A stretch of 64,000 nucleotides of DNA from Candidatus Yanofskybacteria bacterium (GTDB lineage: Bacteria > Patescibacteriota > Minisyncoccia > 2-02-FULL-40-12 > GWA2-44-9), in assembly GCA_903830625.1 (NCBI GenBank), contig CAIKUK010000014.1, positions 772-64,771 on the forward strand, given 5' to 3'. The translations under genes were made by a program, and so were the position numbers. Shown in pieces: positions 25,210 through 41,280 of this stretch. Each line of letters opens with the position of its first letter. Position 1 is the stretch's first letter. Below the pieces are notes generated by a model. That model did no database searches, was not told where the DNA came from, and was given only the letters and a program-made list of their open reading frames with translations.

Positions 25210-26961
25210 ATGCAACCCATGAGTCTATTCAGTCATGTTACTACGAATAATGATATAATAAAACTGATCCTTGAACGTAAGCCCTACATGAATCACCTGT
25301 CAAAATATATAAGAATCTTTCTTATCATCGTTGCTGTTTTTTTGTTGAGCCAATCAAACGCAAACAGTGTTTGGGCGGATACTATTGGCGAACGCCACAC
25401 ATTTTTTGTGGATTCCTCCTACGATGTTACTGGCCGGACAAGCATTCCGGCTACTCTCGAATATGTGGGCGTCCATTCCTATTTCTATGTCGATGATTTG
25501 TATTTGAGTAGTCTTAATTCCCGAGAGCGTGCCATCTTTAATCAGCAAATCATTGCTTCGGCCCAAGAATTCGACGATAATATTTACCCGAAGGGAACCG
25601 CTTTTTGGGGTTCAGAAACAAATCCGGGCATTGATAACGATCCTAAAGTTACGATTCTCCTTGAGCGTCTAACCACTGGCACGGGAGGCTATTTTGACAG
25701 TGCCAATGGCTATTCAAAATCTCAAACAGATTTTACTAATCAGCGGGAAATGATTACGGCCAATATTTCATCGCTTAATACCGGCTATTTAAAAATATTT
25801 CTGGCTCATGAATTCCAACACCTGATCTCGGCTAATCAGAAAGAAATTTTGCGCAATGTCTTTGAAGATACTTGGCTTAACGAGCTCCGTTCGCAATATG
25901 CGATTACAGTCGCGGGATATAATGATGATTTTCAAAATTCGGATCTTTTACAGCGGGCGCAAACATTTGTAAACAACCCGACCGACAGTCTTACCGAATG
26001 GCCGAACACTAATCTTGATTATGCCTCGGTGACATTGTTTGGCCAGTATCTTGTCGATCGCTTTGGGCCAGGCATTCTTCAGGATACGTTACGTAGTCCG
26101 TTTGTCGGTATCAATTCCATTGATAAGTATCTGTCCGATCATCAGAACTTGGAGCGTTTTAACGACGTCTTCGCGGATTGGGAATGGACGAATTATTTTG
26201 ATAACTGTATCCCGGATATTCGATATTGCTATGTGAATCAAAATCTTCAAGCCATCCATGTTTCGTTGACCGACAATGAACAGCTGACATCCAATAATCC
26301 AAATCCGTATGTTTATTTGCTGAAACCATGGCAATCATCTTGGTATCAATTTAAGATTGATCCATCAGCTCCGGCTGGCCAAAACATAAAGATTAGCTGG
26401 CCAAGCTCCGTTTTTCAAGTTTATTATGCGGACGCATCTGGTGCTGAACGTCGTCTTGGTAATGGAGATGTTATAACTCTACCGCCGGCCGGAAGTTTTA
26501 TATTAATGCCGATCAATAGCTCGAAAACAAGCAGTTTCGGAGCCAGTGAAGCGTCTACTCAATTATCGCTATCCATCGAATATACTACCCAAACATTGAC
26601 ATCATTAGTTACCACTGTCAGCGACGGGTCGCTTATCATGCATGCCGGTACGCCGGATATCTACGTGGTCACGGGAACATATAAACGCTATCTGGCGCCA
26701 GACGTGCTCAAATTTTACGGCTTAGATGCCTCGCAGGCGGTGATGGTGACGGAAGCGGTGTTTCAATCATATATGCCCGCGAATTATATTCGCGCGGTAG
26801 ACGAGAAAAAAGTCTATGCTGTTTGGCCCGATGGCACGAAGCATTGGCTTAATATGACCGCTCAACATTTTACTGATTCTTATCGCGATTGGAATTCGGT
26901 TTTTATCGTGAACAGTCTCGAATCAAATTTTTATAAAATTGGTTCCGATATTACACAGTAA
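25210..26961 (+). CDS. Secreted hypothetical protein with an HExxH motif (putative MA-clan metallopeptidase)
   Basis: The likely true start is ATG 25288 (MNHLSKYIRIFLIIVAVFLLSQSNANSVWA signal peptide); HEFQH at LAHEFQHLI. Confidence 0.45.
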   Translation: MQPMSLFSHVTTNNDIIKLILERKPYMNHLSKYIRIFLIIVAVFLLSQSNANSVWADTIGERHTFFVDSSYDVTGRTSIPATLEYVGVHSYFYVDDLYLSSLNSRERAIFNQQIIASAQEFDDNIYPKGTAFWGSETNPGIDNDPKVTILLERLTTGTGGYFDSANGYSKSQTDFTNQREMITANISSLNTGYLKIFLAHEFQHLISANQKEILRNVFEDTWLNELRSQYAITVAGYNDDFQNSDLLQRAQTFVNNPTDSLTEWPNTNLDYASVTLFGQYLVDRFGPGILQDTLRSPFVGINSIDKYLSDHQNLERFNDVFADWEWTNYFDNCIPDIRYCYVNQNLQAIHVSLTDNEQLTSNNPNPYVYLLKPWQSSWYQFKIDPSAPAGQNIKISWPSSVFQVYYADASGAERRLGNGDVITLPPAGSFILMPINSSKTSSFGASEASTQLSLSIEYTTQTLTSLVTTVSDGSLIMHAGTPDIYVVTGTYKRYLAPDVLKFYGLDASQAVMVTEAVFQSYMPANYIRAVDEKKVYAVWPDGTKHWLNMTAQHFTDSYRDWNSVFIVNSLESNFYKIGSDITQ

Positions 26962-27258
26962 AAATATTTTTAGTTCGATGAGTTATCAACTTTTTTATTA
27001 TCAAAAAAGTTTTTTTAGTTTTAAAATTAATGCAGTGAGTAGGCAGTAGGTCGAACTGTCAAACTAAAATAATTATTTATAAGGAGGAATGGAGAGAATG
27101 ATTCTCGTCATGACGATCATTATCTCCGAAGCAAAAAATACTATGGCAAAGAAAAAGAAAGCAGCAAAGAAGAAGAAGAGAATCTAGTCATCTCAAGAGG
27201 GGCGCTCCTGCGCCCCTCTTCCTTTTTAATAATAGATAGGTAGAATTAAAAGAAACCC

Positions 27259-27776: not shown

Positions 27777-30464
27777 ATGGCGTTTTTATCCAGTGTCTTC
27801 GGGGATGCAAACAAGCGGTATATTGATTCCCTGAACCCAATAATCCAAAAGATAAATGACCTCGAAAAAGACTTTGCGGGGCTTTCGGTTGAACAATTAA
27901 AAGAAAAAACAGTTGAGTTTAAAAAACGTCTCGCCGAAGGCGAGACGCTGGATGATTTATTGCCTGAAGCCTTTGCGGCGGTCCGCGAAGCAGCCAAGCG
28001 TACGCTGGGTCAGCGCCACTACGATGTTCAACTCGTTGGCGGTATTGCCTTGCATCGTGGCACAATCACGGAAATGAAAACCGGCGAAGGGAAAACGCTT
28101 GTGGCTACTGCGCCGGTGTATTTGAATGCTCTGATAGGTCAAGGCGTGCATATGGTCACAGTCAATGATTACCTGGCTCGTCGCGATGCGGCCTGGATGG
28201 GCCAGATTTATGATGCCCTGGGTTTGACTGTGGCGACCATTAACCATGAAGCCAGCTATCAGTATGATGCTTCTCATGTAACCAAAGCCGAAGATAAAGA
28301 AGAAGACACCGAAGGCAGTTTTAAAATCGTTCACGAACTGCTTCGGCCCATCACCCGTAAGCAAGCCTATGCCTGCGATATCACTTACGGCACGAACAAC
28401 GAATACGGCTTTGATTATCTCCGCGACAACATGGCCTATTCGCCGGAACAGATGTCCCAGCGTTCGGCCACTGAAGGCGGACACAACTTTGCGATCGTTG
28501 ACGAAGTCGACTCTATTTTAATTGATGAAGCCCGAACGCCATTAATTATCTCTGCGCCGGATGAAGATTCGGGCGAATTATATAAAACCTTTGCCGGTAT
28601 CGCTCCGAAATTAAAGGAAGGCGAAGATTATGCCGTCGATATCAAAGAAAAAGCGGTCTCCATCACTGAAGCCGGTATTGAAAAAGTGGAACAAATACTG
28701 GGGGTTAAGAATATCTATGACGAGGGCGGAATGAAATACGTCCACCACCTGGAACAAGCCTTGAAGGCGCAAGTGATTTTTCATTTGGACCAAAATTATG
28801 TTGTTAAAGACGGGGAAGTGATTATTGTGGATGAGTTTACCGGCCGACTGATGCCGGGCCGGCGCTGGTCCGAAGGCTTGCATCAGGCTGTGGAAGCTAA
28901 AGAAGGCGTCAAAATTCAAAAAGAATCCCGCACTTTAGCGACCATTACTTTCCAAAACTACTTCCGTTTATATAAAAAATTGGCCGGCATGACCGGTACT
29001 GCTCAAAGTTCAGCTGAAGAGTTCCATAAAGTCTATGAATTGGAAGCCATTACCGTTCCAACCAACAAACCGAACATCCGCCAAGACTTACCCGATAAGA
29101 TTTTCAAAAATGAAGCCGGTAAATTCCGAGCCATCGTTCAGGAGGTCAAAGCCCGCAATGCCACTGGTCAGCCGGTTCTGGTGGGTACAGTCTCCATCGA
29201 TAAAAATGAATTTTTGTCATTATTGCTTCAGCGCGAAGGCGTACCCCATACTCTATTGAATGCCAAGAATCACGAAAAAGAAGCTGAGCTTCATGCTCAA
29301 GCCGGGCGATACGGTTCGGTGACTATCGCTACTAACATTGCCGGCCGCGGCGTGGACATTATCCTGGGCGGCAATCCGCCGGATTTGGAAATGCAGAAAA
29401 AAGTTTTGGCTACCGGCGGGTTGCATGTTATTGGTACCGAACGTCACGAAGCCCGTCGCATTGATGATCAGTTGCGCGGCCGCGCCGGCCGTCAGGGCGA
29501 TCCGGGTTCATCTCAATTTTTCGTTTCCACCGAAGATGAACTGGTCAAACGATTCGGCGGCGATAGTTTGAAAAATATCATGGAACGTTTGGGTGTGGGT
29601 GAAGACGATGTTATTGAAAACCGATTTGTTTCCAATGCTATCCAGCAGGCCCAGACCCGCATTGAGGGCTACAACTTCGATGCCCGCAAATATATTCTTG
29701 AATATGACGACGTTATGAACAAACAGCGTGAGACCGTTTACGGTTTACGCCGTCAGATCTTGTTCTCCGAAAGCTCCAAACCGATTATTGAGGGGTATTT
29801 GAATGATTATATTGACCGGATGGTTCAATTCCATACCGCCGGCCATGAATGGGATACCAAAGAATTAACAACTTCGTTTGAAGCGGTGACAGGTCCTGAT
29901 TCTGAAATCGCCAAACAAATCACGGCTTTGGCCGAGGCGCGAGACATAGAAGGACTTAAAACTTTCATGCGCGATTATGTCGCCAAGCGTTACGTTAAGC
30001 GCGAAGAAGAATTAAGCGTTGAACAAATGCGGATGCTGGAAAAGCTGGTTCTTTTGCGCACTATTGATGAAATTTGGGTGGAGCACATTTCGGCCATGGA
30101 ATATTTGCGCGGTTCGGTCCGTTTGAGAGCTTATGGCCAGCGCGACCCGCTCGCCGAATACAAAGTGGAAGGCCAACGGATGTTTATTCAGCTTTTGGAT
30201 TCTATTAAAGCTCAGGTGGTGGATGCCATCTTCAAAGTCAGCATGCTTCGCCAGCCCGAAAGAGTAAAAGTGATTGAAGGCCGGGAGAATATAGAAGGGG
30301 AGACCATTGTGGAAAAAGAATCTCAGCGCGCTATGTCCGTCTATAATTCCGGCGATGATAAAATCGGCCGCAACGACCCCTGTCCTTGCGGTTCCGGCAA
30401 GAAATATAAAAAGTGCGGGCTTCTCAACACCGAAGAACATCAGCGGTTGATGATACAAAAGTAA
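27777..30464 (+). CDS. secA: Preprotein translocase ATPase SecA
   Basis: 895 aa with the MKTGEGKTL Walker A, DEVDSILIDEARTPLIIS, and the C-terminal zinc motif CPCGSGKKYKKCG. Confidence 0.97.
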   Translation: MAFLSSVFGDANKRYIDSLNPIIQKINDLEKDFAGLSVEQLKEKTVEFKKRLAEGETLDDLLPEAFAAVREAAKRTLGQRHYDVQLVGGIALHRGTITEMKTGEGKTLVATAPVYLNALIGQGVHMVTVNDYLARRDAAWMGQIYDALGLTVATINHEASYQYDASHVTKAEDKEEDTEGSFKIVHELLRPITRKQAYACDITYGTNNEYGFDYLRDNMAYSPEQMSQRSATEGGHNFAIVDEVDSILIDEARTPLIISAPDEDSGELYKTFAGIAPKLKEGEDYAVDIKEKAVSITEAGIEKVEQILGVKNIYDEGGMKYVHHLEQALKAQVIFHLDQNYVVKDGEVIIVDEFTGRLMPGRRWSEGLHQAVEAKEGVKIQKESRTLATITFQNYFRLYKKLAGMTGTAQSSAEEFHKVYELEAITVPTNKPNIRQDLPDKIFKNEAGKFRAIVQEVKARNATGQPVLVGTVSIDKNEFLSLLLQREGVPHTLLNAKNHEKEAELHAQAGRYGSVTIATNIAGRGVDIILGGNPPDLEMQKKVLATGGLHVIGTERHEARRIDDQLRGRAGRQGDPGSSQFFVSTEDELVKRFGGDSLKNIMERLGVGEDDVIENRFVSNAIQQAQTRIEGYNFDARKYILEYDDVMNKQRETVYGLRRQILFSESSKPIIEGYLNDYIDRMVQFHTAGHEWDTKELTTSFEAVTGPDSEIAKQITALAEARDIEGLKTFMRDYVAKRYVKREEELSVEQMRMLEKLVLLRTIDEIWVEHISAMEYLRGSVRLRAYGQRDPLAEYKVEGQRMFIQLLDSIKAQVVDAIFKVSMLRQPERVKVIEGRENIEGETIVEKESQRAMSVYNSGDDKIGRNDPCPCGSGKKYKKCGLLNTEEHQRLMIQK

Positions 30465-30487: not shown

Positions 30488-32485
30488 ATGAAAAGAATTC
30501 CTAAAACAAAAGAAGATTTTGCGTGGATACAGTGGTTGTCGAAAGACATAGAAAAAGAGGCAGATAAAATACTCTCTCAAAAAAAAGAGAGATACGCTTT
30601 AATTAAATTGATTTTGGCAAATGAAAGAACTTTTGAAAATACAATTTATGGAATCGAATCAGCCAGTGATGTTGCGGCTTCTATTAATTTGATTGATATT
30701 TTATTGAACGTAAGTCCAGATGAAGAAATCAGAAAAACAGCCGAAAAGACGATCAAACATATACAGGAAGAATTGGTTGATATTGAATATGATCCGGGAT
30801 TATATAAAGCCGTTAAAGAGTTTGCCGAGACTGCTGAGGCCAAAAAATTAACAGGCGAAGATAAAAAACTATTTGACGATATGCTTCGTGATTATCGTCG
30901 CATGGGATTTGATTTACCTCAAGAAAAACAAGATACACTAAAGTCTACCGTCAAAAAGCTCCAAAAACTTGAGACCGAATTTACTTTAAATATCAACAAC
31001 TACAAAGATAATATTCTTGTAACCCGAGAAGAGTTAAATGGTTTATCGGAAAATTATATTAAAAGCCTTGAGAAAGATGAGCTGGCGGATAAATATAAGG
31101 TATCTTTGAAGGCTCCGGAATTCTTGCCTTTTGTAGAAAATGCTACCGATGCTTCTAAACGCAAAGAGTTAACCGATAAAAACTTACATAAAGGGGGACA
31201 GGCCAACATAGAGATTCTTAAAGAAGTTCTTCCCCTGCGGCAAGTCCAGGCCGAGCTATTGGGTTATAAAAATTACGTAGATTATGCTGCAGAACCGCGA
31301 ATGGCCAAGAGTGGTAAAATTATAAAAGATTTTCTCAACGACTTAATAGGTAAGGTTGGTCCAATGAAAGATCATGATCTCGCGACTATTAAAGAATTAA
31401 AGCAATCCATGATTGGCAATTCTAAGGCGGAGCTAGAGTATTTTGATATTTGGTATTATATTCGACAGTCGGAAAAGAAACTATTTAATTTTGACAAAGA
31501 AAAGATTAGGGATTATTTTCCGCTTGAAACCGTCAAAAAAGGAATTTTTGGAATCTACGGAAAACTATTTTCTATAAATTTTGAAGAAGTAATTGGGTAT
31601 CCAACCTGGCATCCCGATGCCAGGTTATATGCAGTAAAGAATCAGAATGATCAAAGTGTTGCAGGGTATATATTCATGGATCTTCATCCAAGAGAGGGAA
31701 AATTTAGCCACCCATCAATGTGGCAGCTTATTAATGGACACAGAGATGGTTACAGAAGTGAGAGTTATATTACTCCTCTTGCCATCCTGATTGGGAATTT
31801 TCCTAAATCAACTCCTGATTTACCTTCACTTTTAAGTCATGGTGAAGTGGAAACATTTTTCCATGAGTTCGGCCACATTATGCATGGGGTATTAACAAGT
31901 GCTTCCTATGCTTCCCAATCGGGGACTGCGGTTGCTCGGGATTTTGTAGAAGTTCCCTCCCAAATGCTAGAACATTGGGTTTGGGATAAAGATATGCTCA
32001 ACATTCTTTCCGGGCACTATAAAAATTCGGGTGAAAAATTGCCTCCGGATATTCTCGATAGTATGTTGAGGGCAAAAGATCACATGGTCGGCTATATAAC
32101 CATGAGGCAGTTGGTATTAGGTTTTTATAATCACGTGCTTCATGCCGGTTCCGTTTTCGAAAGTATTACTAAAATTTATAATGATTTGAATTTTAAATAT
32201 TTTGACATCAAGCTTCCGGAAGATAATATTTTTGCCGCCGGCTTCGGCCATCTTTTCGGGTATGCCGGTGCCTATTATGGCTACATGTGGTCTGAAGTGT
32301 ATGAATGCGATCTTTTTACTCGTTTTAAGGCCGAAGGATTATTAAATCCAAAAACAGGAGCTGATTATCGTTCTTGGATTTTAGAAAAAGGTTCAAGCGT
32401 GGAGCCGATTGATTTGATTCGGGGTTTTCTTGGCCGAGAACCCAATAACAAAGCATTTTTGGAAAAAATCGGAGTTAAAGAGTAG
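30488..32485 (+). CDS. M3 family zinc metallopeptidase (oligoendopeptidase/oligopeptidase A-like)
   Basis: HEFGHIMH (HExxH) with a downstream E, about 665 aa, M3 architecture. Confidence 0.8.
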   Translation: MKRIPKTKEDFAWIQWLSKDIEKEADKILSQKKERYALIKLILANERTFENTIYGIESASDVAASINLIDILLNVSPDEEIRKTAEKTIKHIQEELVDIEYDPGLYKAVKEFAETAEAKKLTGEDKKLFDDMLRDYRRMGFDLPQEKQDTLKSTVKKLQKLETEFTLNINNYKDNILVTREELNGLSENYIKSLEKDELADKYKVSLKAPEFLPFVENATDASKRKELTDKNLHKGGQANIEILKEVLPLRQVQAELLGYKNYVDYAAEPRMAKSGKIIKDFLNDLIGKVGPMKDHDLATIKELKQSMIGNSKAELEYFDIWYYIRQSEKKLFNFDKEKIRDYFPLETVKKGIFGIYGKLFSINFEEVIGYPTWHPDARLYAVKNQNDQSVAGYIFMDLHPREGKFSHPSMWQLINGHRDGYRSESYITPLAILIGNFPKSTPDLPSLLSHGEVETFFHEFGHIMHGVLTSASYASQSGTAVARDFVEVPSQMLEHWVWDKDMLNILSGHYKNSGEKLPPDILDSMLRAKDHMVGYITMRQLVLGFYNHVLHAGSVFESITKIYNDLNFKYFDIKLPEDNIFAAGFGHLFGYAGAYYGYMWSEVYECDLFTRFKAEGLLNPKTGADYRSWILEKGSSVEPIDLIRGFLGREPNNKAFLEKIGVKE

Positions 32486-32494
32486 GATTAAACC

Positions 32495-33223
32495 ATGCCA
32501 GCCAAATTTTCAACTATAAAAATATCTCGGTCGGGGCTGAAGCTCTTCCAGGACTGCCCGCGTTGTTTTTGGTTGGATGTGCATCATAAAATCAAACGGC
32601 CGCCGAGTTTCCCATACACGCTATCATCGGCGGTGGATTTTTTGGTCAAACAGGAATTTGATAAGTACCGCAAACAGGGGACGTTGCCGCCGGTCTTGGC
32701 ACGGCACCTAGCCGGCGATGCCAAGCTCTACAATGGCCCTGAATTGCCTGTGTGGCGCGAGAACTTCAAAGGGGTGCAGTATTTCGATGAAGACCTCAAT
32801 GCCATGCTCTACGGGGCGGTGGACGATGTCCTGCAATTAGCCGACGGCTCGCTAGCAGTCATTGATTACAAATCCTCCGGTTCCAGGGAAATAAAAATCT
32901 ACGACGACTATCAGAAGCAGATGGACATCTATACTTATCTTCTGGATCGCAACGGGTTCAAAACCCATACCGAGGCCTACTTCGTCTTTTACCAGGTGGA
33001 TAAAACCGGCGGTGGATTTCAAAATGCTTTACCGTTTATTGAATCATTGAAAGCGGTCAAAGCCGACAAATCATGGGTCGGGGATGTCTTTGAACAAGCG
33101 GTGATGGTAGCCCGCCGAAATACGCCGCCAGAAATTACCATGCCTTGTCCGCATTGCGTCTATGTTCAGCAAGCCGGCAAATTTCCTTTTGCTTCGGAAG
33201 AACAAATCGTGGAAATGGAATAG
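32495..33223 (+). CDS. PD-(D/E)XK nuclease, Cas4-like with Cys cluster
   Basis: N-terminal Cys pair QDCPRCFW, D...IDYK core (AVDDV...AVIDYKSSG), QxxxY-like DIYTYLL, and C-terminal Cys pair CPHCVYV, suggesting four Fe-S cysteines. Confidence 0.6.
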   Translation: MPAKFSTIKISRSGLKLFQDCPRCFWLDVHHKIKRPPSFPYTLSSAVDFLVKQEFDKYRKQGTLPPVLARHLAGDAKLYNGPELPVWRENFKGVQYFDEDLNAMLYGAVDDVLQLADGSLAVIDYKSSGSREIKIYDDYQKQMDIYTYLLDRNGFKTHTEAYFVFYQVDKTGGGFQNALPFIESLKAVKADKSWVGDVFEQAVMVARRNTPPEITMPCPHCVYVQQAGKFPFASEEQIVEME

Positions 33224-33250
33224 CCGGCTAACTTAAGATATACTGCCAAT

Positions 33251-34708
33251 ATGCCCACCGATTCCAACCAGCCGAAGTTTTACGGAGATTATTTTTATAA
33301 ATTTTTCCAGTGTCCGCATTGGATTTGGTACGACATTTACGGCGACGGCCAATATAAGCGGGACATTCCGCCATTGTTGGATTTAATCTATAAAGGCAAG
33401 ACGCTCGATGCTGGCCAGACACTTTCCAATCACAAAAAGTTTGAGCAGATCGATCCTGAACTATTTAAAGATCTCGACGAAGCTTTTTTGGCGACGGTGG
33501 AACTTATGAAGCAGGGCAAAAACATTTATCATGGTGTTTTGATGTCCGAGGATTGGGTCGGTATTCCCGACCTACTGGAAGCCCGGCCGGGAAAATCAAA
33601 CCTCGGCGATTTCTATTATGTCGTCTATGATGTTCAGAATTCTTTGGAGATGCGCGATGAGTATAAGTTCCAGTTAATTTTTTACAGTTTGATATTGGAA
33701 CGGATTCAAGGTGTTCGTCCCGAGCAAGCTTACATTATAGATTCACAGGGTAATGAAGTCGGATTCAAAATTTCCGAATATATCGATCAATTTCATCTCA
33801 CTCGCCAGCAAATCGAAAAAATACTTAACGGTGAAAAACCGGCGCCGTTTTTGAAAGCCGGCTGTAAGCGCACGCCCTGGTACTCGCTGTGTATTTCGGA
33901 AACCCAAGGCTGTAATGATGTCTCGCTCATTTACCGCATCAGTCAGGCCGATCAACGTCGCCTGTATGATATTGGTATTAAGACCGTGGATGCTTTGGCC
34001 GCCGCCGATCCTGACGATCTTCAGGAAAAACTGGAAGATTGGCCATTCGACAAGATTGTCCGTTTTTCCAATCAGGCCAAATCGCTCACGACCGGTGAGC
34101 CGATGATTACCCGTCATCCCAATTTCCCTGATGTTCGCTATGAAGTTTATTTTGATATTGAATCCGACCCGCTGGCGGACATTGATTATCTGCTGGGATT
34201 TATGGTCAAGGACACCAAAACCGGGAAAACAGAGTACAAGTACTTTTTGGCCAGGAACAAAGAAGAAGAACCGGAAGCTTGGCGCAAGTTTTTGGAATAC
34301 CTGGCCGAGCTCGAAGATTTTGTCATCTATCACTATGCTTTTTATGAACGCCAAGTCTTTGAACGCCTGGCCACTCGTTACGGCGCGCCGACCAGTCTTT
34401 TGGAAAAATTCAGAGAGAACACCATTGATTTGCATACCAAACTTATTGATTCAGCCATCCTGCCCATCTACTTCTATTCCCTCAAAGATGTTGGTTCGTA
34501 TCTAAATTTCAAATGGGACGACCCTCATGCCGGCGGCGCCGAATCCATTCTCTGGTACAAAGAATGGCTGGAAAAAGGGGACGAAGCGATTATGAAAAAA
34601 ATCCTCCGCTACAACGAGGACGATGTCCGAGCGACCATGATCATCAAAGACTGGTTAGTCGACCAAAAACCCCACAAGTCCAAAGAAAAAGAATCGCTCG
34701 ACGAATAA
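33251..34708 (+). CDS. TM0106-family putative RecB-like nuclease (N-terminal PD-(D/E)XK-like domain plus C-terminal RNase H-like YFDIE domain)
   Basis: FFQCPHWIWYD N-terminus resembling the Cas4-like neighbour, KFQLIFYSLIL (QhxxY), and YEVYFDIESDP exonuclease-like motif I. Confidence 0.5.
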   Translation: MPTDSNQPKFYGDYFYKFFQCPHWIWYDIYGDGQYKRDIPPLLDLIYKGKTLDAGQTLSNHKKFEQIDPELFKDLDEAFLATVELMKQGKNIYHGVLMSEDWVGIPDLLEARPGKSNLGDFYYVVYDVQNSLEMRDEYKFQLIFYSLILERIQGVRPEQAYIIDSQGNEVGFKISEYIDQFHLTRQQIEKILNGEKPAPFLKAGCKRTPWYSLCISETQGCNDVSLIYRISQADQRRLYDIGIKTVDALAAADPDDLQEKLEDWPFDKIVRFSNQAKSLTTGEPMITRHPNFPDVRYEVYFDIESDPLADIDYLLGFMVKDTKTGKTEYKYFLARNKEEEPEAWRKFLEYLAELEDFVIYHYAFYERQVFERLATRYGAPTSLLEKFRENTIDLHTKLIDSAILPIYFYSLKDVGSYLNFKWDDPHAGGAESILWYKEWLEKGDEAIMKKILRYNEDDVRATMIIKDWLVDQKPHKSKEKESLDE

Positions 34709-34712
34709 AAAC

Positions 34713-34747
34713 AAAGTGCCCGCGTCAGTCGGGCACTTTGTTTTTAT
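34713..34747 (+). terminator. Rho-independent terminator
   Basis: aaagtgccc ... gggcacttt followed by gttttta. Confidence 0.6.
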
Positions 34748-34759
34748 TTAACGAATCTG

Positions 34760-34803: not shown

Positions 34804-36192
34804 ATGCGGAAAAATTTATTTCTCATCTCAACTATTATCGGCTCGCTTCTTATGTTGGCTTTTGTGGCCCCGCAGGCCATCAACAAAACGGCTCAAAAAC
34901 TCCATATCCCGAAAATTAATCTTTCCACTCCGCCATTCCGTTTAGGGTTGGATCTTTTAGGTGGCACTCATCTTATCTATCAAGCCGACCTCTCAAAGAT
35001 AACCGGTTCGGCCAATGACGCGATGCAAGGCGTGCGTAATGTCGTTGAACGGCGGGTGAATTTGTTCGGCGTTTCGGAACCGGTGGTCCAGATTTCCGGC
35101 AACGACCGTTTGATTGTCGATTTGGCCGGCATCAGTGACGTTAATCAGGCCATCGAGCTTATCGGCCAGACGCCTTTCCTGGAATTTAAAACCATGCTGC
35201 CGACGGCTCAAGGCGACGCCATCATTAAACAAGCGCTCGGCGCTAATACCCAAGGCCTGACCGCGGCCGCTCTTTGTGCGCCAGCCAACATCGTGACGCT
35301 GAATCAATTCTTGCTCAGTTTCGGGACCGATCCTTGTTTCCAGTCATCGGGTCTGAATGGTTCCGGTTTGAAAACGGCCCAAGTCTCTTTTAATAACCAG
35401 TCGCTTAGTCCTCAAGTCAGTCTTGAATTAAATACTGAAGGCGCAAAACTTTTCGGTCAGATTACCCAAGCCAACATCGGCAAGACCGTGGCTATTTATC
35501 TGGATGGCATACCCATTTCCACGCCGACGGTTCAGAGCGCCATTACCGATGGCCACGCGGTCATCAGTGGTAGCTTTACTCCCGAAGAAGCCAAGACACT
35601 GGTGGAGCGTTTGAATTCAGGCGCCTTGCCGGTGCCGATCCAGCTGGTCAGCCAACAAACTATCGGTGCCAGTCTCGGCCAGGATTCGTTGGCTCGCAGT
35701 TTTAAAGCCGGTATTTACGGCCTGATATTCGTTGCCATTTTCATGATTCTATTCTATCGTTTGCCGGGCGTCATTTCGGTGGTGGCTTTGTTGGTCTATA
35801 TCCTGATTGTCCTCTCTCTTTATAAATTTATTCCGGTTACGCTTACTTTGGCCGGTATCGCCGGTTTTATTCTGACGCTGGGTATGGCCGTAGATGCCAA
35901 TATTCTTATCTTCGCGCGCATGAAAGAAGAACTGGCGGCCGGTAAGCCGTTGCAAGTAGCGATGCATGAAGGCTTCTCTCGCGCCTGGTTATCAGTCCGA
36001 GACAGTCACGTCACGACCATCATTGGCGCAGTTGTGCTTTATGCCATGACCAGTTCGATTGTGAAAGGCTTTGCTTTGACTTTGGGTATCGGCGTTCTGA
36101 CCAGTCTGTTTACCGCCACCATGGTTACTCGCACCTTCTTGAATCTGGTGACTTCAAAATGGTTTGAACGCAAACAATGGTTATTCCGATAA
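34804..36192 (+). CDS. secD: Protein translocase subunit SecD
   Basis: The start is ATG 34804 (MRKNLFLISTIIGSLLMLAF); the ORF-track start at 34513 is an in-frame read-through of the upstream gene region. It has a periplasmic domain plus six C-terminal TM helices. Confidence 0.9.
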   Translation: MRKNLFLISTIIGSLLMLAFVAPQAINKTAQKLHIPKINLSTPPFRLGLDLLGGTHLIYQADLSKITGSANDAMQGVRNVVERRVNLFGVSEPVVQISGNDRLIVDLAGISDVNQAIELIGQTPFLEFKTMLPTAQGDAIIKQALGANTQGLTAAALCAPANIVTLNQFLLSFGTDPCFQSSGLNGSGLKTAQVSFNNQSLSPQVSLELNTEGAKLFGQITQANIGKTVAIYLDGIPISTPTVQSAITDGHAVISGSFTPEEAKTLVERLNSGALPVPIQLVSQQTIGASLGQDSLARSFKAGIYGLIFVAIFMILFYRLPGVISVVALLVYILIVLSLYKFIPVTLTLAGIAGFILTLGMAVDANILIFARMKEELAAGKPLQVAMHEGFSRAWLSVRDSHVTTIIGAVVLYAMTSSIVKGFALTLGIGVLTSLFTATMVTRTFLNLVTSKWFERKQWLFR

Positions 36193-36228
36193 ATTCAAAT
36201 TTAAAATTTTAAATTTAAAATTCCCGAA

Positions 36229-37113
36229 ATGCTTCCCCGCGTATACAAATTAATGTTCTGGTTCTCGATTTTCCTAGTAGTGCTGTCGGTGGTCGCCGTC
36301 AGTGTTTTCGGTTTGCGTTTGGGAGTGGATTTTCAAGGAGGAAGTGTTTTGGAACTAAACTTTAAAAATCGGCCCGATATCGGCCAAATTAAAAATATCC
36401 TGACCCCCAAGATTGGCGATGTTGAATTAAGCACCGAGGCAGAGACGGGATTAATTGTCCGAACCCATGAACTGACTGAAGCTCAACACCAGAGCGCATT
36501 GAGTGCGCTCAACACCGCTTTCCCAACCAGCGGTCTGGTGGAAAAACAATTCAGTTCAGTCGGACCGATTATCGGCAATGAATTGAAACAAAGAAGTTTG
36601 TTTGCCATTCTCATGGTCCTTGTTTGCGTGATTATTTATATCGCTTTTGTTTTTCGAAAGCTTGGCCGAACCACTTCTCCTTGGGCCATGGGTTTGGCGG
36701 CTATCGTGGCTCTTATGCATGATGTGGCCATTCCTGTAGGCGTGTTTGCAATTCTCGGTCATTTTTATAATATCGAAATTACGGGTGTCTTTGTTGCCGC
36801 CGCCCTGACTATTCTCGGTTTCTCGGTGTCAGATACAGTGGTTATTTTCGACCGTGTCCGCGAAAATATTATCCGCGGGGGAGGAAACAAAACCCAATTC
36901 GGTTCAGTAGTCCATAAGAGTGTCATGCAAACACTGACCCGTTCTTTAAACACCGTTTTTACCGTGCTTTTATCACTGTTCGCCATTTACTTTTTTGGCG
37001 GCGAGAGTATTAAGTACTTTTCTTTGGCCTTAATCATTGGTATCTTCCTGGGAGCTTACTCATCCATTTTCGTCGCTTCGCCTTTGTTGGTTTGGTGGAC
37101 CAAAAACACTTAA
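36229..37113 (+). CDS. secF: Protein translocase subunit SecF
   Basis: 294 aa with SecF topology; it immediately follows secD. Confidence 0.9.
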   Translation: MLPRVYKLMFWFSIFLVVLSVVAVSVFGLRLGVDFQGGSVLELNFKNRPDIGQIKNILTPKIGDVELSTEAETGLIVRTHELTEAQHQSALSALNTAFPTSGLVEKQFSSVGPIIGNELKQRSLFAILMVLVCVIIYIAFVFRKLGRTTSPWAMGLAAIVALMHDVAIPVGVFAILGHFYNIEITGVFVAAALTILGFSVSDTVVIFDRVRENIIRGGGNKTQFGSVVHKSVMQTLTRSLNTVFTVLLSLFAIYFFGGESIKYFSLALIIGIFLGAYSSIFVASPLLVWWTKNT

Positions 37114-37201: not shown

Positions 37202-38266
37202 ATGACAATCAATACCTCGGTCAATATAAAGAAAACAGTCGCTGATTTGCTTAAAAACATCTCAGCCCGCAATAAGGACATCATTTCCCGTCGTTTTGGC
37301 TTGAAAACGGGCCAGAAAGAGACTTTAGAATCAATCGGCGCTTCTTATAGCATTACCCGCGAACGTGTCCGTCAGATCGAGGAATCGACCCTGTCTCAAC
37401 TCCGCCAGGCTGCAGCCGGCCATTCTGATGTCAAACGTTATATTGTTCTGGCCCGCGATATTTTGAATGAACACGGCGGAGTCATCAAAGAACGCGACCT
37501 CTTCAAATCCTTCAGTGGTCACGATGGCGATAATATCAATAACAGTTCTCTGGTCTTTCTTTTGTCGTTAAGCAACGAAATTGTCCGTTCGCCGGAAAAT
37601 GAAGATTTTAATTCTTTCTGGGCGGTTAGTAATGCCACCTTGGCTTCATTTGCCAACACTGCCAGTTCTTTGATTAAAGTTCTTGAAAAAACTGGCCGAG
37701 TCGTTTCCAATTCCGATTTCGCTTTCTTGGCCCAGAAGCATAGCGTGCCCAGTTTTTCAACCAGCGGTAAACCATTATCGGAAGCGGATATCGCTCTGGT
37801 CATGGCTGTTTCCAAGAATCTCGGTTCCAACATCTTCAACGAAGTCGGTCTGGCTTCATGGTCCGAAATCAAACCTAAAGGTGTCCGCGATAAAGCTTTC
37901 TTGGTGCTTAAGAAATCAACCAAGCCTCAGCATTTCAGCGATATCGCTTCTTTGATTAACGCTTCCGGATTCAACAATAAGAAAGCCAATGTCCAGACGG
38001 TCCATAACGAATTGATCAAAGATGACCGCTTTATCCTGGTCGGCCGAGGCATGTATGCCTTGTCTGAATGGGGCTATCGCGCCGGTACGGTCAAAGACGT
38101 CCTCGTCGACATTCTCAAATCTTCAAACAAGCCGATGGCCAAAGCCACTTTGATGGCCAAAGTCAAAGACGCACGCATGGTCAAAGAAAACACTATTTTG
38201 CTTAATCTCCAGGATTCAAAAACATTCACCAAAAACTCTGACGGCACATACAATCTCAGGAAATAA
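37202..38266 (+). CDS. Sigma-70 region 4-like HTH domain protein with a long C-terminal extension (putative transcription regulator)
   Basis: LESIGASYSITRERVRQIEESTLSQLRQ matches the sigma-70 region 4.2 pattern; no regions 2/3 are recognisable; 354 aa. Confidence 0.55.
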   Translation: MTINTSVNIKKTVADLLKNISARNKDIISRRFGLKTGQKETLESIGASYSITRERVRQIEESTLSQLRQAAAGHSDVKRYIVLARDILNEHGGVIKERDLFKSFSGHDGDNINNSSLVFLLSLSNEIVRSPENEDFNSFWAVSNATLASFANTASSLIKVLEKTGRVVSNSDFAFLAQKHSVPSFSTSGKPLSEADIALVMAVSKNLGSNIFNEVGLASWSEIKPKGVRDKAFLVLKKSTKPQHFSDIASLINASGFNNKKANVQTVHNELIKDDRFILVGRGMYALSEWGYRAGTVKDVLVDILKSSNKPMAKATLMAKVKDARMVKENTILLNLQDSKTFTKNSDGTYNLRK

Positions 38267-38278
38267 TTTCAGAATTAA

Positions 38279-38354
38279 AAGGGCCCCGCCTTTTCGGAGA
38301 AGTTTCTATCCGTGCTTTAGCCGGTTAAGAATCTCTGTGGCGGGGCCCTTTTAA
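38279..38354. repeat. Large-loop hairpin element (family copy B): 10-bp stem gggccccgcc/ggcggggccc with A4/T4 flanks and a conserved 48-nt interior
   Basis: The interior ttttcggagaagtttctatccgtgctttagccggttaagaatctctgt matches the interior motifs of copy A at 22904-23044, while the stems differ but stay complementary. Confidence 0.6.
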
Positions 38355-38387
38355 TGTCATATCAAGAAGTAGTATACTAAGAACATA

Positions 38388-39689
38388 ATGGATTCTATCC
38401 TAAACACCCTGGGTTCTACTTGGACGGCCTTGGGTTTGGTGTTTTCTTACTGGTGGATTTGGGCGCCGCTTATTCTGGTTTTTGTCTATGTGGAAGCTCT
38501 CAAAGAATATAATCAAAAAGTTTACAAGGCCGGATTGAAATGGATAACCTACGAATTAAAAATACCACTTGATGCCCACAAAAGTCTCAAGGCGATGGAA
38601 CAGATTTTTGCCGGCTTGCACGTGGTTGGACAATCAACGCCGCCTAAAAACCTTTGGGAAAAATACAAAAATTGGCGGGATGCGCTTTTCAAAGGCAAGG
38701 TTAAAGATTGGCTCTCATTGGAGATTGTCGGCACGGGCGGAGAGATTCATTTTTACATCAGAATAATAGAGAAGTATAAAAGTTTGGTTGAGGCCCAAAT
38801 TTATGCCCAATATCCCGAATCCGAATTAACTCCGGTCACGGACTACATGTTGAGTTTTCCCGCTTCTTTGTCTTATAGCGACGTAAACGTAAACGCTCTG
38901 GAGCTGGTATTCATCAAAGAAGATATTTATCCTATCAAAACTTATCCCGAATTTGATGAAGAAGGCGCGGGCAAGGATGACGTCAGGCGCATTGATCCAC
39001 TAGCGCCAGTGGCCGAAACATTGAGTGGCCTGGGACTCTCTGAATTTTTCGGTATTCAGATATTGGCCCGTTCAACAGGGGATGCCTGGGTTAAAAAGGA
39101 CCAAGCGGTCATCGATAAACTAATGGGTCGGGAAGAAAAGAAAGGAAAAACAGCCGCTGATTCTGTCTTTGAAGGTATTGAAAGCGGGGCGCATTCAATT
39201 TCTAGCGCTTTTTTCGGTCCAGGCGAGCCAGCCAAAGAAGAAAAGAAAAAAGAAGACAAACCTTTCAATCAATTGAATCCTGGTATTCAGGAAACCATTA
39301 AGACTATAGAAAAGGGCACAGCCAAATTGGCTTTTGAGTCGGGTATCAGAATGGTTTATATTGCTCCACTAGATAAATATGACGACGGCCGGATGCGCAG
39401 TGTCGCCGGCGCTTTCAAGCAATTTTCCACCCAAGCCCTCAATGGTTTTAAGCCGGGACTTTCGACCGACATTACCAAAGGTTTTAATAAATCTGCCCGC
39501 TCGCTAAAAAACAAGAAAAAAATATATAAAAGCTATCGAGGCCGGGACTTCCCCAAGAAGCCTTTGATTTTGAATACCGAAGAGCTGACGACAATTTTCC
39601 ATGTTCCCGATGTCGGCGTGAAGACACCGGCTTTGCCTCGCATTGAAGCCAAGAAAGGCGAAGCGCCGGCCGGAATTCCTACTGTTTAA
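38388..39689 (+). CDS. Hypothetical membrane-anchored protein (N-terminal TM, large extracytoplasmic/cytoplasmic domain), possibly a partner of the downstream T4CP-like ATPase
   Basis: 433 aa with a TALGLVFSYWWIWAPLILVFVYV TM segment; no family recognised; tightly linked to the downstream ATPase. Confidence 0.5.
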   Translation: MDSILNTLGSTWTALGLVFSYWWIWAPLILVFVYVEALKEYNQKVYKAGLKWITYELKIPLDAHKSLKAMEQIFAGLHVVGQSTPPKNLWEKYKNWRDALFKGKVKDWLSLEIVGTGGEIHFYIRIIEKYKSLVEAQIYAQYPESELTPVTDYMLSFPASLSYSDVNVNALELVFIKEDIYPIKTYPEFDEEGAGKDDVRRIDPLAPVAETLSGLGLSEFFGIQILARSTGDAWVKKDQAVIDKLMGREEKKGKTAADSVFEGIESGAHSISSAFFGPGEPAKEEKKKEDKPFNQLNPGIQETIKTIEKGTAKLAFESGIRMVYIAPLDKYDDGRMRSVAGAFKQFSTQALNGFKPGLSTDITKGFNKSARSLKNKKKIYKSYRGRDFPKKPLILNTEELTTIFHVPDVGVKTPALPRIEAKKGEAPAGIPTV

Positions 39690-39699
39690 AAAATTAAGC

Positions 39700-41280
39700 A
39701 TGGCCTTATCTACAGACAACCAGATTCTTATTCTCGGCGAAACAAACTTCCGAAACGAGAAACAGCATTTTGGAATTAAAGCCGATGACCGCCGCCGTCA
39801 CATGTATGTGGTCGGTTCAACTGGTATGGGCAAGTCCGAGTTTTTAAAAAATATGGCCATCCAGGATATTGAAGAAGGCCGGGGTCTGGCCTTTCTGGAT
39901 CCGCACGGCGACGGGGCCCAAGCTTTAATTAACTTTATTCCCAAACATCGCATTAAAGATGTCATCTATTTTGATCCGGCCGACCTGGCTTACCCGATTG
40001 CCTTCAACGTGCTTGAAAAAGTGGATTACGAATATCGCCACTTAATTGCTTCCGGACTTTTGGGCGTGTTTAAAAAACTTTGGGGCGCCGAAGCCTGGTC
40101 CGGCCGGATGGAATACATTTTAAACAACACCATTTTGGCCCTGCTTGAATATCCGGACTCCACGCTTTTGGGTATTAATCGCTTGATGGCTTCCAAAGAA
40201 TACCGCCGAAAAGTCGTTGATAACTTGAAAGACCCGATTGTGAAAGCCTTCTGGACTGATGAATTCGCCAAATATTCCGATAAATTTGCCAGCGAAGCCA
40301 CGGCGGCCATTCAAAACAAAGTCGGCCAGTTTTCATCCAACAATGTCATCCGCAATATTGTCGGTCAGGTGGGTACCAAGCTTGATATCCGCAAAATCAT
40401 GGACGAAGGCAAGATTCTTATTGTCAACCTGTCTAAAGGCGCTATCGGTGAAGATGCTTCGCGGCTCCTCGGCGCTTTATTGATTACCAAAATTCAACTA
40501 GCGGCCATGTCCCGGGTGGATACTCCCGAAACAGAACGCCGCGATTTTTATCTCTATGTTGATGAATTTCAAGCTTTTGCTACCGAATCTTTCGCTAATA
40601 TTTTATCCGAAGCCCGCAAATATCATTTGAACCTGATTGTGGCTCATCAGTACATCACGCAAATGGAAGAAGAAGTTCGTGATGCGGTCTTCGGCAACGC
40701 CGGCACAATCGTGACCTTCCGGGTGGGCGCGGAAGACGCCGAGTTTTTGGAAAAATGGTATGCCCCTGATTTCATGGCGGCCGATATCGTCAACCTCGGC
40801 AAGCGCGAGATGTATCTTAAATTGATGGTTAACGGCATTACCTCTAAAGGTTTTTCGGCGCGAACAAGCGATTCCTTGGCTTCTATGGAAGAATCCCACC
40901 AAGACGAAGTGATTGCTTTTTCGCGCGCGCATTATTCTTCAAACCGCGATGACGTGGAAAAGTCAGTGGCTGAGTGGGCGACACCGATGGAACCGGCCCC
41001 ATTGCCTCCCCGCGACCGCCGTCCTCAAGACAATTATGGCCAGTCTCGCCAGAGGCCTCGTTCGCAAATGTCCCGTCCGCCTTTGCCACCGAGAGAGGAA
41101 ACAAAACGTGTTGTCTCTTTGGATACTCTCAAAGAGAATGATTCTGATGTAAGAACTGTCGATTTTCGGCGTCAGAGAACCAAAGTCCAGCTGGAGAACT
41201 TAGATGAACCCCGCGAACCTAAGAAAAAGATAGATACCGCTGAGTTGAAGAAAATTCTCGAAGAAGCGCTTAAGAAATAG
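39700..41280 (+). CDS. TrwB/VirD4/TraG-type type IV coupling protein-like ATPase lacking the N-terminal transmembrane domain
   Basis: HMYVVGSTGMGKSEFL...LAFLDPHGDG...DVIYFDP...FNVLE parallels TrwB (HLLVNGATGTGKS...VIVDPNGD...IILNP...FNEI). The Walker B FYLYVDEFQAF and RKYHLNLIVAHQYITQM match LFIDELASL and RKAGLRVVAGLQSTSQL; there is a charged, low-complexity C-terminal tail. Confidence 0.7.
   Translation: MALSTDNQILILGETNFRNEKQHFGIKADDRRRHMYVVGSTGMGKSEFLKNMAIQDIEEGRGLAFLDPHGDGAQALINFIPKHRIKDVIYFDPADLAYPIAFNVLEKVDYEYRHLIASGLLGVFKKLWGAEAWSGRMEYILNNTILALLEYPDSTLLGINRLMASKEYRRKVVDNLKDPIVKAFWTDEFAKYSDKFASEATAAIQNKVGQFSSNNVIRNIVGQVGTKLDIRKIMDEGKILIVNLSKGAIGEDASRLLGALLITKIQLAAMSRVDTPETERRDFYLYVDEFQAFATESFANILSEARKYHLNLIVAHQYITQMEEEVRDAVFGNAGTIVTFRVGAEDAEFLEKWYAPDFMAADIVNLGKREMYLKLMVNGITSKGFSARTSDSLASMEESHQDEVIAFSRAHYSSNRDDVEKSVAEWATPMEPAPLPPRDRRPQDNYGQSRQRPRSQMSRPPLPPREETKRVVSLDTLKENDSDVRTVDFRRQRTKVQLENLDEPREPKKKIDTAELKKILEEALKK

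Follow-up and report, generated by a model that had tools for sequence, protein, structure and literature searches.

Two PD-(D/E)XK nuclease genes in the secA–secDF block of a Yanofskybacteria-like bacterium are probably vertically inherited housekeeping genes

Two adjacent nuclease genes, here called nuc1 and nuc2, lie between secA and secDF in a 64,000-nucleotide stretch of DNA (the window) from a Yanofskybacteria-like groundwater bacterium (Paceibacteria, CPR) with a tiny genome. We conclude, at a probability of roughly 0.6, that both are chromosomal housekeeping nucleases of vertical descent, kept under strong constraint, which trim DNA tails or flaps, and that they belong neither to a CRISPR system nor to a mobile element. 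Vertical descent is indicated by conserved synteny across 80 genomes together with sequence conservation at the level of SecA. Judged from their sequences, both genes are further members of known families; the details new here are a 2+2 ligand pattern in nuc1 and the replacement of a catalytic Lys by Gln (K/Q/R/S among relatives) in nuc2.

Results

Both open reading frames described in the original prediction were found on the forward strand, as were all features given below. nuc1 (32495–33223; 242 aa) starts 9 bp after the stop codon of an M3 peptidase gene (30488–32485; Pfam Peptidase_M3, 1e-112), which follows secA (27777–30464); secA anchors the conserved block on its upstream side. nuc2 (33251–34708; 485 aa) begins 27 bp after nuc1 and is followed by the downstream anchor (34804–37113), made up of secD (34804–36192) and secF (36229–37113). 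The gaps from secA to nuc2 are short and hold no terminator. The hairpin after nuc2 escaped a scan for consensus terminators and was found by direct reading and folding: a Rho-independent terminator hairpin with a U-tract at 34703–34749, overlapping the nuc2 stop codon. Its fold has a dG of −29.7 kcal/mol (z = −7.5), and none of 200 shuffles was as stable. The second gene does have a strong terminator of its own, as had been proposed. This hairpin is the predicted end of a secA–M3 peptidase–nuc1–nuc2 transcription unit, within which nuc1 and nuc2 are likely co-transcribed in the window. An antisense ORF of 230 aa within nuc2 (33743–34435) was taken to be a mere shadow ORF of the highly conserved gene that it overlaps.

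Pfam PDDEXK_1 (PF12705) matched nuc1 with 42.3 bits (1e-10; cut-off 22), placing it in that family, while all its matches to Cas4 profiles stayed below threshold. The active site is complete, with D110, D124-x-K126 and Q142xxxY146, and these residues did not vary across 50 relatives. Among the same relatives C21 and C24 are at least 90% conserved and C218 and C221 are invariant, as is H220. The resulting 2+2 ligand pattern, CxxC (21, 24) and CxHC (218, 220, 221), marks a putative metal or Fe-S site, and the catalytic residues and Cys/His ligands are also kept in the broad family. Top Foldseek matches of the AF2 model (pLDDT 86.8) were MGME1, the AdnAB nuclease domain, Cas4 SSO0001, lambda exonuclease and ACE1, at TM-scores that were low for nuc1 and nuc2 alike (0.4–0.5). 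When solved structures were searched by sequence, nuc1 gave a weak ACE1 match only (profile E = 0.007). The broad family comprises 1382 clusters at 50% identity and is nearly nameless in cluster look-ups, the labels being 'Cas4 (RecB family)' and NUDIX-fusion. NUDIX is fused to a nuc1-family protein in one cluster of 46 members; other fusions carry HD_4 or TIR domains, and the partners are heterogeneous. The Pfam match and the conserved Cys agree with the earlier description of the first gene, so that nuc1 is classed, on its sequence, as a stand-alone Cas4/RecB-type PD-(D/E)XK nuclease with four conserved Cys. Like Cas4, MGME1 and AdnAB nuclease domains, it would carry out metal-dependent cutting or 5'-end degradation of ssDNA ends.

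nuc2 is a short-form TM0106/COG2251 two-nuclease protein. NCBIfam TIGR03491 ('TM0106 family RecB-like putative nuclease') matched it with 332.9 bits (3e-99; cut-off 97.45) over the full length, residues 16–469 aligning with model positions 7–462 of 462. Relatives at 66–88% identity come from Yanofskybacteria, Taylorbacteria and Paceibacterota. Foldseek returned the Dna2 nuclease domain and the ERI-1 3' exonuclease, and a sequence search of solved structures, profile included, returned no match. The N-terminal Cas4-like, putatively Fe-S-binding domain (aa ~15–222; 33293–33916) was recognized from weak Cas4 profile matches, alignment, a residue census and Foldseek. C21, C205, C214 and C221 do not vary among 192 sequences and form a 1+3 arrangement of unusual spacing; AF2 confidence was low in the Cys-bearing segments (residues 1–50 and 182–220). 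Motif II is D107, motif III is D127-V-Q129 and the Q-motif is Q141xxxY145. The canonical PD-(D/E)XK triad is therefore incomplete, with Gln (Q129) in the position of the Lys, whereas aligned long-form TM0106 proteins read D-T-K. Across 192 nuc2 sequences from Paceibacteria, residue 129 is Q in 149, K in 28, R in 14 and S in 1; Pro occurs in the Q-motif in 42 of the 192, and its Tyr is replaced by Ala in eight. Because of the Gln at the catalytic position, the Pro in the Q-motif and the Ala at the Tyr, the activity of this domain is uncertain, and it may be either weakened or serve as a DNA-end-binding module. The missing Lys qualifies the predicted activity of the N-terminal domain, not membership of the TM0106 family.

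A helical linker with a helix-hairpin-helix-like motif (aa ~223–296; 33917–34138) follows, weakly assigned from a Pfam HHH_5 match below its cut-off (0.0016) and from helices at 232–281 in the AF2 model. The C-terminal domain (aa 297–470; 34139–34660) is a predicted RNase H-like DEDD(y) 3'-5' exonuclease domain, modelled at pLDDT 80–95 (AF2). Pfam RNase_H_2 (PF13482) matched residues 299–470 (9e-34), a PHROG DNA-polymerase exonuclease region matched the same domain (1e-5), and DUF2779 (PF11074) matched nuc2 with 25.2 bits (2e-5; cut-off 23.3). The YFDIESD motif is present. D302, E304 and E366 are conserved in 192/192 sequences and D458 and Y454 in 190/192 each; D393 is invariant in a 48-sequence alignment, and the Y454-N-E-D-D458 segment is invariant or nearly so. 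Four acidic residues and a Tyr ahead of the last Asp (where Tyr or His is expected) are all in place, and the predicted exonuclease site is fully intact. The full-length TIGR03491 match and the RNase_H_2 match likewise uphold the earlier assignment of the second gene to the TM0106 family with an RNase H-like/DEDD domain.

The N-terminal modules of the two proteins had also been called related, which is correct at the family level: BLASTP aligned them at 23% identity over 163 aa (E = 0.019), and hhalign (E = 0.009) aligned the CPRCFW/CPHWIW, D, DxK/DxQ and QxxxY motifs. The genes are not a recent duplicate pair. Their pairing along the chromosome is loose. nuc1 lies upstream of nuc2 in 36 of 60 informative loci, often straight after secA, with gaps of 18–2523 bp that are ≤130 bp in 16 of the 36 pairs; in the other 24, no nuc1 was seen over at least 5 kb upstream of nuc2. 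Given these loci with no nuc1 nearby and the wide range of spacing, the two do not form an obligate operon pair. In three loci (L022, L029 and L030) nuc2 is immediately preceded by a different nuc1-family member on the opposite strand, a paralogous gene that hints at a real functional link; the two proteins may also be physical partners. The idea that nuc1 compensates by supplying the Lys-dependent activity lost by nuc2 was rejected, as the motif-III state was uncorrelated with the presence of nuc1 (K in 9 loci with nuc1 upstream and 8 without; Q in 27 with and 9 without).

These counts could also be explained without any module, by two independent housekeeping nucleases that are adjacent because the variable stretch between a secA–nuc1 anchor and a nuc2–secDF anchor is empty here. 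nuc1 indeed starts 6–59 bp past secA in three loci (L007, L063 and L018) and can be up to 2.5 kb from nuc2, and long-form TM0106 genes on plasmids lack a nuc1 neighbour; the scarcity of close pairs, the loci with no nuc1 nearby and the uncorrelated motif-III state point the same way. The likely co-transcription in the window argues for a link between the genes, as does the paralogue that adjoins nuc2 in three loci although the ortholog has been lost. We regard full independence as unlikely.

The housekeeping reading is supported by the genomic neighbourhood. In Yanofskybacteria/Paceibacteria the order secA...nuc1...nuc2-secD-secF-sigma-r4/HARE-HTH-DUF8128-VirD4-like recurs in long contigs of independent origin and across 80 loci from GTDB. 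nuc2 adjoins secD in nearly all related loci (80 genomes), at ≤300 bp in 32 and ≤2.5 kb in 23 more, counts that include a rearrangement to secD→nuc2 in which the stop and start codons overlap. Over 18 complete loci, median amino acid identity to the window was 69% for nuc2 and 65% for nuc1, compared with 65.5% for SecA, 64% for SecD and 60% for SecF. The surrounding genes of the window are housekeeping genes (secA, secDF, LysRS, FtsW, UvrB, Mur ligase and Lon), and an ORF and Pfam scan of the flanks found no mobile-element genes beside nuc1 and nuc2. Their GC content is that of the flanks (0.45–0.52), whereas the M3 peptidase gene has 0.34–0.40. At this position the M3 peptidase was present in none of the 80 related loci, and only a duplicate contig (L001) shares the placement. 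The local insert is the variable, low-GC M3 peptidase gene, not the nuclease pair.

This bears directly on the original prediction that the genes may form a DNA end-processing or defence module and look like an insertion, for which conserved housekeeping synteny had been named as the contrary finding. Such synteny is what the related genomes contain; end-processing remains plausible, while defence is contradicted by the synteny and by SecA-level conservation. The absence of CRISPR and cas genes from the window was confirmed by repeat searches and ORF scans. No CRISPR array was detected in the window (TRF; direct-repeat search), no cas gene occurred among ~35 window ORFs scanned or in related loci, and adjacency to cas1/cas2 or an array was seen in neither; an Rfam scan of the window returned a single tRNA and nothing else. 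Scores against TIGR00372 Cas4 were 18.2 bits for nuc1 and 33 bits for nuc2 (cut-off 65), and nuc2 scored 20 against PF01930 Cas4 (cut-off 22.7).

An anti-phage or anti-plasmid role for a stand-alone Cas4/RecB-like module, inserted between the M3 peptidase gene and secD, would find some precedent within the two families: proteobacterial plasmid long-form TM0106 genes stand beside WYL regulators, HEPN, DUF3883 and SbcCD-like genes in a defence-island-like setting, and some nuc1-family proteins carry TIR fusions. The terminator of nuc2's own would also suit an inserted unit. PADLOC gave weak, isolated Cas4 matches for both proteins and a DruK single-profile match, but no system-level match. IMG/VR viral contigs contained no nuc2 relative; nuc1 gave two loci, one of which (L091, 70% identical) is close to the end of a prophage; there an integrase sits between the phage genes and nuc1, so that the homologue looks like host flank. 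A mobile or viral origin was rejected on these grounds. Together with the GC content and the flanks free of mobile-element genes, the synteny largely refutes the insertion and defence reading, which we consider very improbable.

Some relatives have an AddA/RecB-like helicase-nuclease gene a few kb upstream, so that a shortage of end-resection enzymes in the lineage is not obvious. Beside the AddA-like gene of two loci (L058 and L065), a search for an AddB-like partner revealed small ORFs only, and no UvrD-type gene was present among the window ORFs scanned.

Discussion

Since neither family has a biochemically characterised member, all activities of nuc1 and nuc2 given here are predictions. 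Under the preferred housekeeping reading, we infer that the most likely role is the processing of DNA ends or flaps. Acting together or separately in a cell with a reduced genome, the two enzymes would trim single-stranded tails or flaps, both 5' and 3', during recombinational repair, replication restart or the handling of incoming DNA. CPR genomes are enriched in solo Cas4-like genes, which descend vertically (PMC5704561); COG2251 has been predicted as a 3'-5' exonuclease fused to DUF83 (PMC3985635); and in the minimal cell JCVI-syn3.0 a protein of the same Cas4-like plus DEDD architecture (DUF2779, MMSYN1_0389) is quasi-essential (PMC13621843). Our searches found no literature on TM0106/TIGR03491 itself or on the DNA-repair gene content of Patescibacteria.

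CPR bacteria are commonly regarded as unable to make nucleotides de novo, and the pair might instead serve nucleotide salvage, reducing DNA (or RNA), whether imported or damaged, to mononucleotides. The variable stretch by nuc1 in one locus (L006) contains NTPase_I-T, CYTH and His_Phos_1 genes along with three NUDIX genes, and the 46-member NUDIX fusion cluster, the HD_4 fusion and the conserved downstream neighbours DUF8128 and a VirD4/TraG-like ATPase would fit such a role. A DUF2779 mutant of M. bovis was growth-deficient in cell culture and was recovered alongside nanoRNase and GdpP mutants (PMC7373297), which can be read in the same sense. However, the neighbouring genes are variable and not conserved, the fusion partners are heterogeneous, and neither protein has a signal peptide or membrane anchor in its sequence. 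Cas4-type enzymes with Fe-S clusters, like DEDD domains joined to HhH linkers, typically process ends and do not degrade in bulk. We consider salvage improbable.

End-processing could be cast more specifically. nuc2, with nuc1 where present, would then be a helicase-independent end-resection/flap-trimming enzyme of ultra-small CPR cells and a stand-in for RecJ, in position as well as function, at secDF; the Cas4-like domain of nuc2 would be a largely non-catalytic Fe-S 'DNA-end sensor' feeding 3' ends to the DEDD domain, and nuc1 the PD-(D/E)XK cutter. RecJ probably adjoins secDF in Firmicutes, and we found no literature on the secDF–recJ neighbourhood. We offer this version as a speculation with little chance of being right in full.

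In practice this corrects the original prediction, and the two genes ought to be dropped from any list of candidate defence islands or insertions. A Cas4-like plus DEDD protein under SecA-like constraint in CPR, with a quasi-essential analogue in JCVI-syn3.0, suggests by analogy that reduced genomes keep an uncharacterised core function in DNA maintenance. The overall interest of the finding is modest; the Paceibacteria proteins are nevertheless convenient for study, being short and helicase-free, with natural K/Q/R variants at the catalytic position.

Comparison with known systems

The closest known system to nuc2 is TM0106 (TIGR03491; COG2251; RNHL family F.13, Majorek et al. 2014), which has the same order of Cas4-like and PF13482 domains and no CRISPR association. 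nuc2 is a short form that lacks the tandem AAA/helicase region of the 900–1100 aa plasmid TM0106 proteins. It differs from these long forms in having Gln in place of Lys in motif III, in its C-terminal Cys spacing (C-x8-C-x6-C as opposed to a compact CxxCxxC...C) and in its context, a chromosomal core at secDF instead of WYL/SbcCD neighbourhoods. DUF2779 proteins (PF11074; MMSYN1_0389 of JCVI-syn3.0, Mbov_0804) resemble nuc2 in placing a Cas4-like domain ahead of a DEDD(y) domain and, for MMSYN1_0389, in retention in a reduced genome, where it is quasi-essential. Their exonuclease domain belongs to a different Pfam family, and MMSYN1_0389 has a D/E/K triad with two Cys only, whereas nuc2 has four Cys and lacks the Lys.

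With Cas4 and solo Cas4 (PF01930, TIGR00372; SSO0001, Pcal_0546), the latter common in CPR genomes, nuc1 and nuc2 share the PD-(D/E)XK RecB-like fold and the QxxxY motif; in Cas4, N- and C-terminal Cys come together around an Fe-S cluster, and those of nuc1 and nuc2 may do likewise. Both score below the Cas4 cut-offs and stand apart from cas1/cas2 and arrays, and the ligands of nuc1 are 2+2 instead of the 1+3 of Cas4. ACE1, a stand-alone Cas4-family DNA nuclease, is the closest solved sequence relative of nuc1 and also a fold match; the similarity is very weak, however, the N-terminal region differs, and no pAgo gene lies nearby in the window. The nuclease domains of AdnAB/AddAB/RecB, Dna2, MGME1 and Exo5 are directed at ssDNA ends and have fold and catalytic motifs in common with the window proteins, and in AddB, Dna2 and Exo5 an Fe-S site spans the nuclease domain. 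Unlike AddAB/RecBCD/AdnAB, nuc1 and nuc2 carry no SF1 helicase domain, and the TM-scores reach 0.4–0.5 only. Finally, residues 297–470 of nuc2 share with DEDD exonucleases (PolB/PolA proofreading, MrfB, ERI-1) the acidic set and a Tyr four residues before the last Asp, and nuc2 differs from them in the fusion of this domain to a Cas4-like one.

Identity of the two nucleases

Both nuclease genes were confirmed as ORFs on the forward strand, nuc1 at 32495-33223 (242 aa) and nuc2 at 33251-34708 (485 aa), and their domain content proved to be as originally predicted. nuc1 is a Cas4-like protein with four cysteines that exceeds the Pfam PDDEXK_1 cut-off (42.3 bits versus 22); its matches to Cas4 models are all sub-threshold. 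nuc2 belongs to NCBIfam TIGR03491 ('TM0106 family RecB-like putative nuclease') as a full-length member, scoring 332.9 bits versus a cut-off of 97.45, and its C-terminal region matches Pfam RNase_H_2 (9e-34). A DUF2779 match is marginal, one to Cas4 (residues 91-215) falls below threshold and one to a helix-hairpin-helix, in the linker, is weak; the exonuclease part of nuc2 also hits a phage DNA-polymerase PHROG, in its exonuclease region. We are highly confident of what the two proteins are. The N-terminal modules had been described as related: their motifs do align in register (hhalign E = 0.009), but identity is only 23% and, judged by sequence, the kinship is at family level only.

In 50 relatives of nuc1, D110, D111, D124, K126, Q142 and Y146 are invariant, which leaves the PD-(D/E)XK and QxxxY motifs complete. 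These proteins have their four cysteines in a 2+2 arrangement (C21-x2-C24 and C218-x-H220-C221), which is preserved in a far broader family of proteins of ~230-260 aa (1382 clusters at 50% identity, E <= 1e-3). The AF2 model is confident (pLDDT 86.8), and its top PDB folds are MGME1, AdnAB nuclease domains, Cas4 SSO0001, lambda exonuclease, ACE1, Exo5 and Dna2, with TM-scores of only 0.35-0.5. By sequence, the closest solved protein is ACE1 (profile E = 0.007). Fusions of nuc1-family domains to NUDIX (a 46-member cluster), HD_4, TIR_2, GYF_2 and DUF5710 exist as well; long relatives of nuc1 in alignment A3, P0254 (392 aa) included, are examples.

Among 192 nuc2 sequences, C21, C205, C214, C221, D107 and D127 are invariant. 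The window protein has Gln at the catalytic Lys position (Q129), which is occupied by Gln in 149 of the sequences, Lys in 28, Arg in 14 and Ser in one; in the Q-motif, Gln is replaced by Pro in 42 and Tyr by Ala in eight. A Gln at the catalytic position is compatible with activity in some restriction enzymes, for example BglII. The Cas4-like domain would be either a putative tuned nuclease or a putative Fe-S module that chiefly binds DNA. Because the DEDD set (D302, E304, E366, D393, Y454-x3-D458) is invariant or nearly so, the predicted C-terminal 3'-5' exonuclease is certainly under constraint. For nuc2, AF2 models residues 230-470 well and the Cys-bearing stretches 1-50 and 182-220 poorly; fold matches, to Dna2 nuclease and ERI-1, are weak.

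Conserved synteny with secA and secDF

Close homologues of both genes were found in MAGs of Nomurabacteria, Yanofskybacteria, Taylorbacteria and 'Paceibacterota'. The best retrieved locus, L007 from a Yanofskybacteria MAG, shows 88-91% amino-acid identity for secA, nuc1 and nuc2. Independent contigs of 313-373 kb share the order secA ... nuc1 ... nuc2 - secD - secF - sigma-r4/HARE-HTH - DUF8128 - VirD4-like, as do 80 GTDB species representatives. The distance between nuc2 and secD is at most 300 bp in 32 loci and at most 2.5 kb in a further 23, and nuc1 directly follows secA in L007, L063 and L018. Over the 18 loci having every compared gene, median identities to the window are 69% for nuc2, 65% for nuc1, 65.5% for SecA, 64% for SecD and 60% for SecF; the nucleases are therefore under core-gene-level constraint. 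The nuc2-secD linkage persists in two different arrangements: in a more distant clade (L075-L081; L080, 8739-11461), secD precedes nuc2, its stop codon overlapping the nuc2 start codon, and no secF follows.

Conservation of this housekeeping synteny refutes the original prediction that the pair was an insertion or a defence module. Its observation that the window holds no CRISPR array and no cas genes was borne out, and we regard a defence function as very improbable. Our overall reading (probability roughly 0.6) is that nuc1 and nuc2 would be conserved housekeeping enzymes of Paceibacteria, both nucleases acting on DNA ends or flaps; any specific repair role is tentative.

The variable element of the window is instead the M3 peptidase gene (30488-32485). 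Its GC content is 0.34-0.40 versus 0.45-0.52 in its neighbours, and none of 80 related loci has an M3 peptidase between secA and nuc1; it is therefore the peptidase, probably a recent acquisition, that was inserted, and not the nucleases. The interval from secA to nuc2 is a hot spot whose gene content varies between loci: L003 (2664-5957) carries an M16 peptidase plus an alpha/beta hydrolase there, other loci have M16 or M15 peptidases, and L006 (576-7304) has three NUDIX genes together with NTPase_I-T, CYTH and His_Phos_1. That nuc1 and nuc2 themselves serve nucleotide salvage is unlikely. In L091 (1-8000), a nuc1 of 70% identity is preceded at ~3 kb by a prophage end (LPD38, amidase and tyrosine integrase genes), with no secA in the 8 kb of upstream sequence covered.

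The remaining window ORFs include glycan-synthesis genes, secA, secDF, LysRS, FtsW, UvrB, a Mur ligase, a beta-CASP RNase and Lon; an Rfam search of the window returned one tRNA-Lys and no other RNA family. Positions 1-27000 form a large cluster for surface glycans. It encodes three FkbM-type methyltransferases and a B12-binding radical SAM enzyme, and also contains GDP-mannose dehydratase-like genes and the gene of a Wzy-like O-antigen ligase bearing TPR repeats; its ORFs without a Pfam match include 2260-4095, 9593-10603, 16185-17384 and 25210-26961. Downstream of secDF lies a conserved CPR block (37202-41280) encoding a sigma-70 region 4 + HARE-HTH protein (37202-38266), DUF8128 (38388-39689) and, overlapping the latter, a VirD4/TraG/HerA-like ATPase (39643-41280), the best-conserved gene of the block (median 73%).

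Transcription and linkage of nuc1 and nuc2

nuc1 starts 9 bp after the M3 peptidase stop and is separated from nuc2 by 27 bp. Between nuc2 and secD, a hairpin with a perfect 20-bp stem and a U-tract (34703-34749; dG -29.7 kcal/mol, z = -7.5, 0/200 shuffles equally stable on folding) upholds the terminator originally assigned to nuc2; a consensus terminator scanner failed to pick it up. A promoter-like TTGACA-17-TTAAAT site lies downstream. Because of these two elements, secA-M3-nuc1-nuc2 looks like a single transcription unit, with secDF the next one. The true secD start is ATG 34804; a longer ORF starting at 34513 was rejected as a by-product of mechanical ORF listing. A second strong terminator hairpin (27195-27220; 11-bp stem, 8 GC pairs) lies upstream of secA.

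Evidence that the pair forms a module is mixed. In favour, nuc1 and nuc2 are probably co-transcribed in the window. Moreover, three loci without an orthologous nuc1 carry another family member (33-35% identity) adjoining nuc2 on the opposite strand (L022, 9210-9965 (-); L029, 8339-9091 (-); L030, 1568-2341 (-)), which may be a paralogous replacement. Co-occurrence was partial: of 60 informative loci, 36 have nuc1 upstream of nuc2, but nuc1 is absent nearby in 40%, and spacing varies (18-2523 bp, with gaps <=130 bp in only 16 loci). The motif-III residue of nuc2 showed no correlation with nuc1 presence, and plasmid long-form TM0106 genes stand beside WYL regulators and SbcCD-like genes without a nuc1 neighbour. 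Also against a link, in some Paceibacteria the region 3-4 kb upstream of nuc2 contains a UvrD-helicase + PDDEXK_1 (AddA/RecB-like) gene (1020-1100 aa; L058, 3344-6406; L065, 2841-6140; L056, 2-1465; L085, 3-1745), so this lineage does possess helicase-nucleases; no AddB-like partner was seen beside these genes. We find it rather unlikely that nuc1 and nuc2 are independent genes, neighbours by chance.

The plasmids are alphaproteobacterial (L087, 5995-13034; L088, 4900-12531). There, a divergent WYL regulator is followed by a long-form TM0106 gene (~1100 aa, with a helicase region), then SbcD-like and SbcC-like AAA ATPase genes, with HEPN and DUF3883 nearby; the region, which differs from the CPR context, is a candidate island for defence or repair.

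Comparison with known systems

CPR genomes without CRISPR-Cas are enriched in solo Cas4-like genes of no known function, which are passed on vertically (Hudaiberdiev et al., PMC5704561). COG2251 joins a PF13482 RNase H-like domain, a predicted 3'-5' exonuclease, to DUF83 (Majorek et al., PMC3985635). The quasi-essential MMSYN1_0389 (DUF2779) of JCVI-syn3.0 combines a Cas4-like and a DEDD nuclease in one fusion protein (2026, PMC13621843), and an M. bovis DUF2779 mutant shows growth deficiency in cell culture (PMC7373297). Our literature search found no paper naming TM0106 or TIGR03491. nuc1 and nuc2 belong to known kinds, and small details are new: the lasting nuc2-secD linkage; the 2+2 ligand pattern of nuc1, where Cas4 and AddB show 1+3; and natural K/Q/R variation at the nuc2 catalytic position, where proteobacterial and cyanobacterial long-form TM0106 proteins have the canonical D-T-K and the window protein has Gln in place of Lys.
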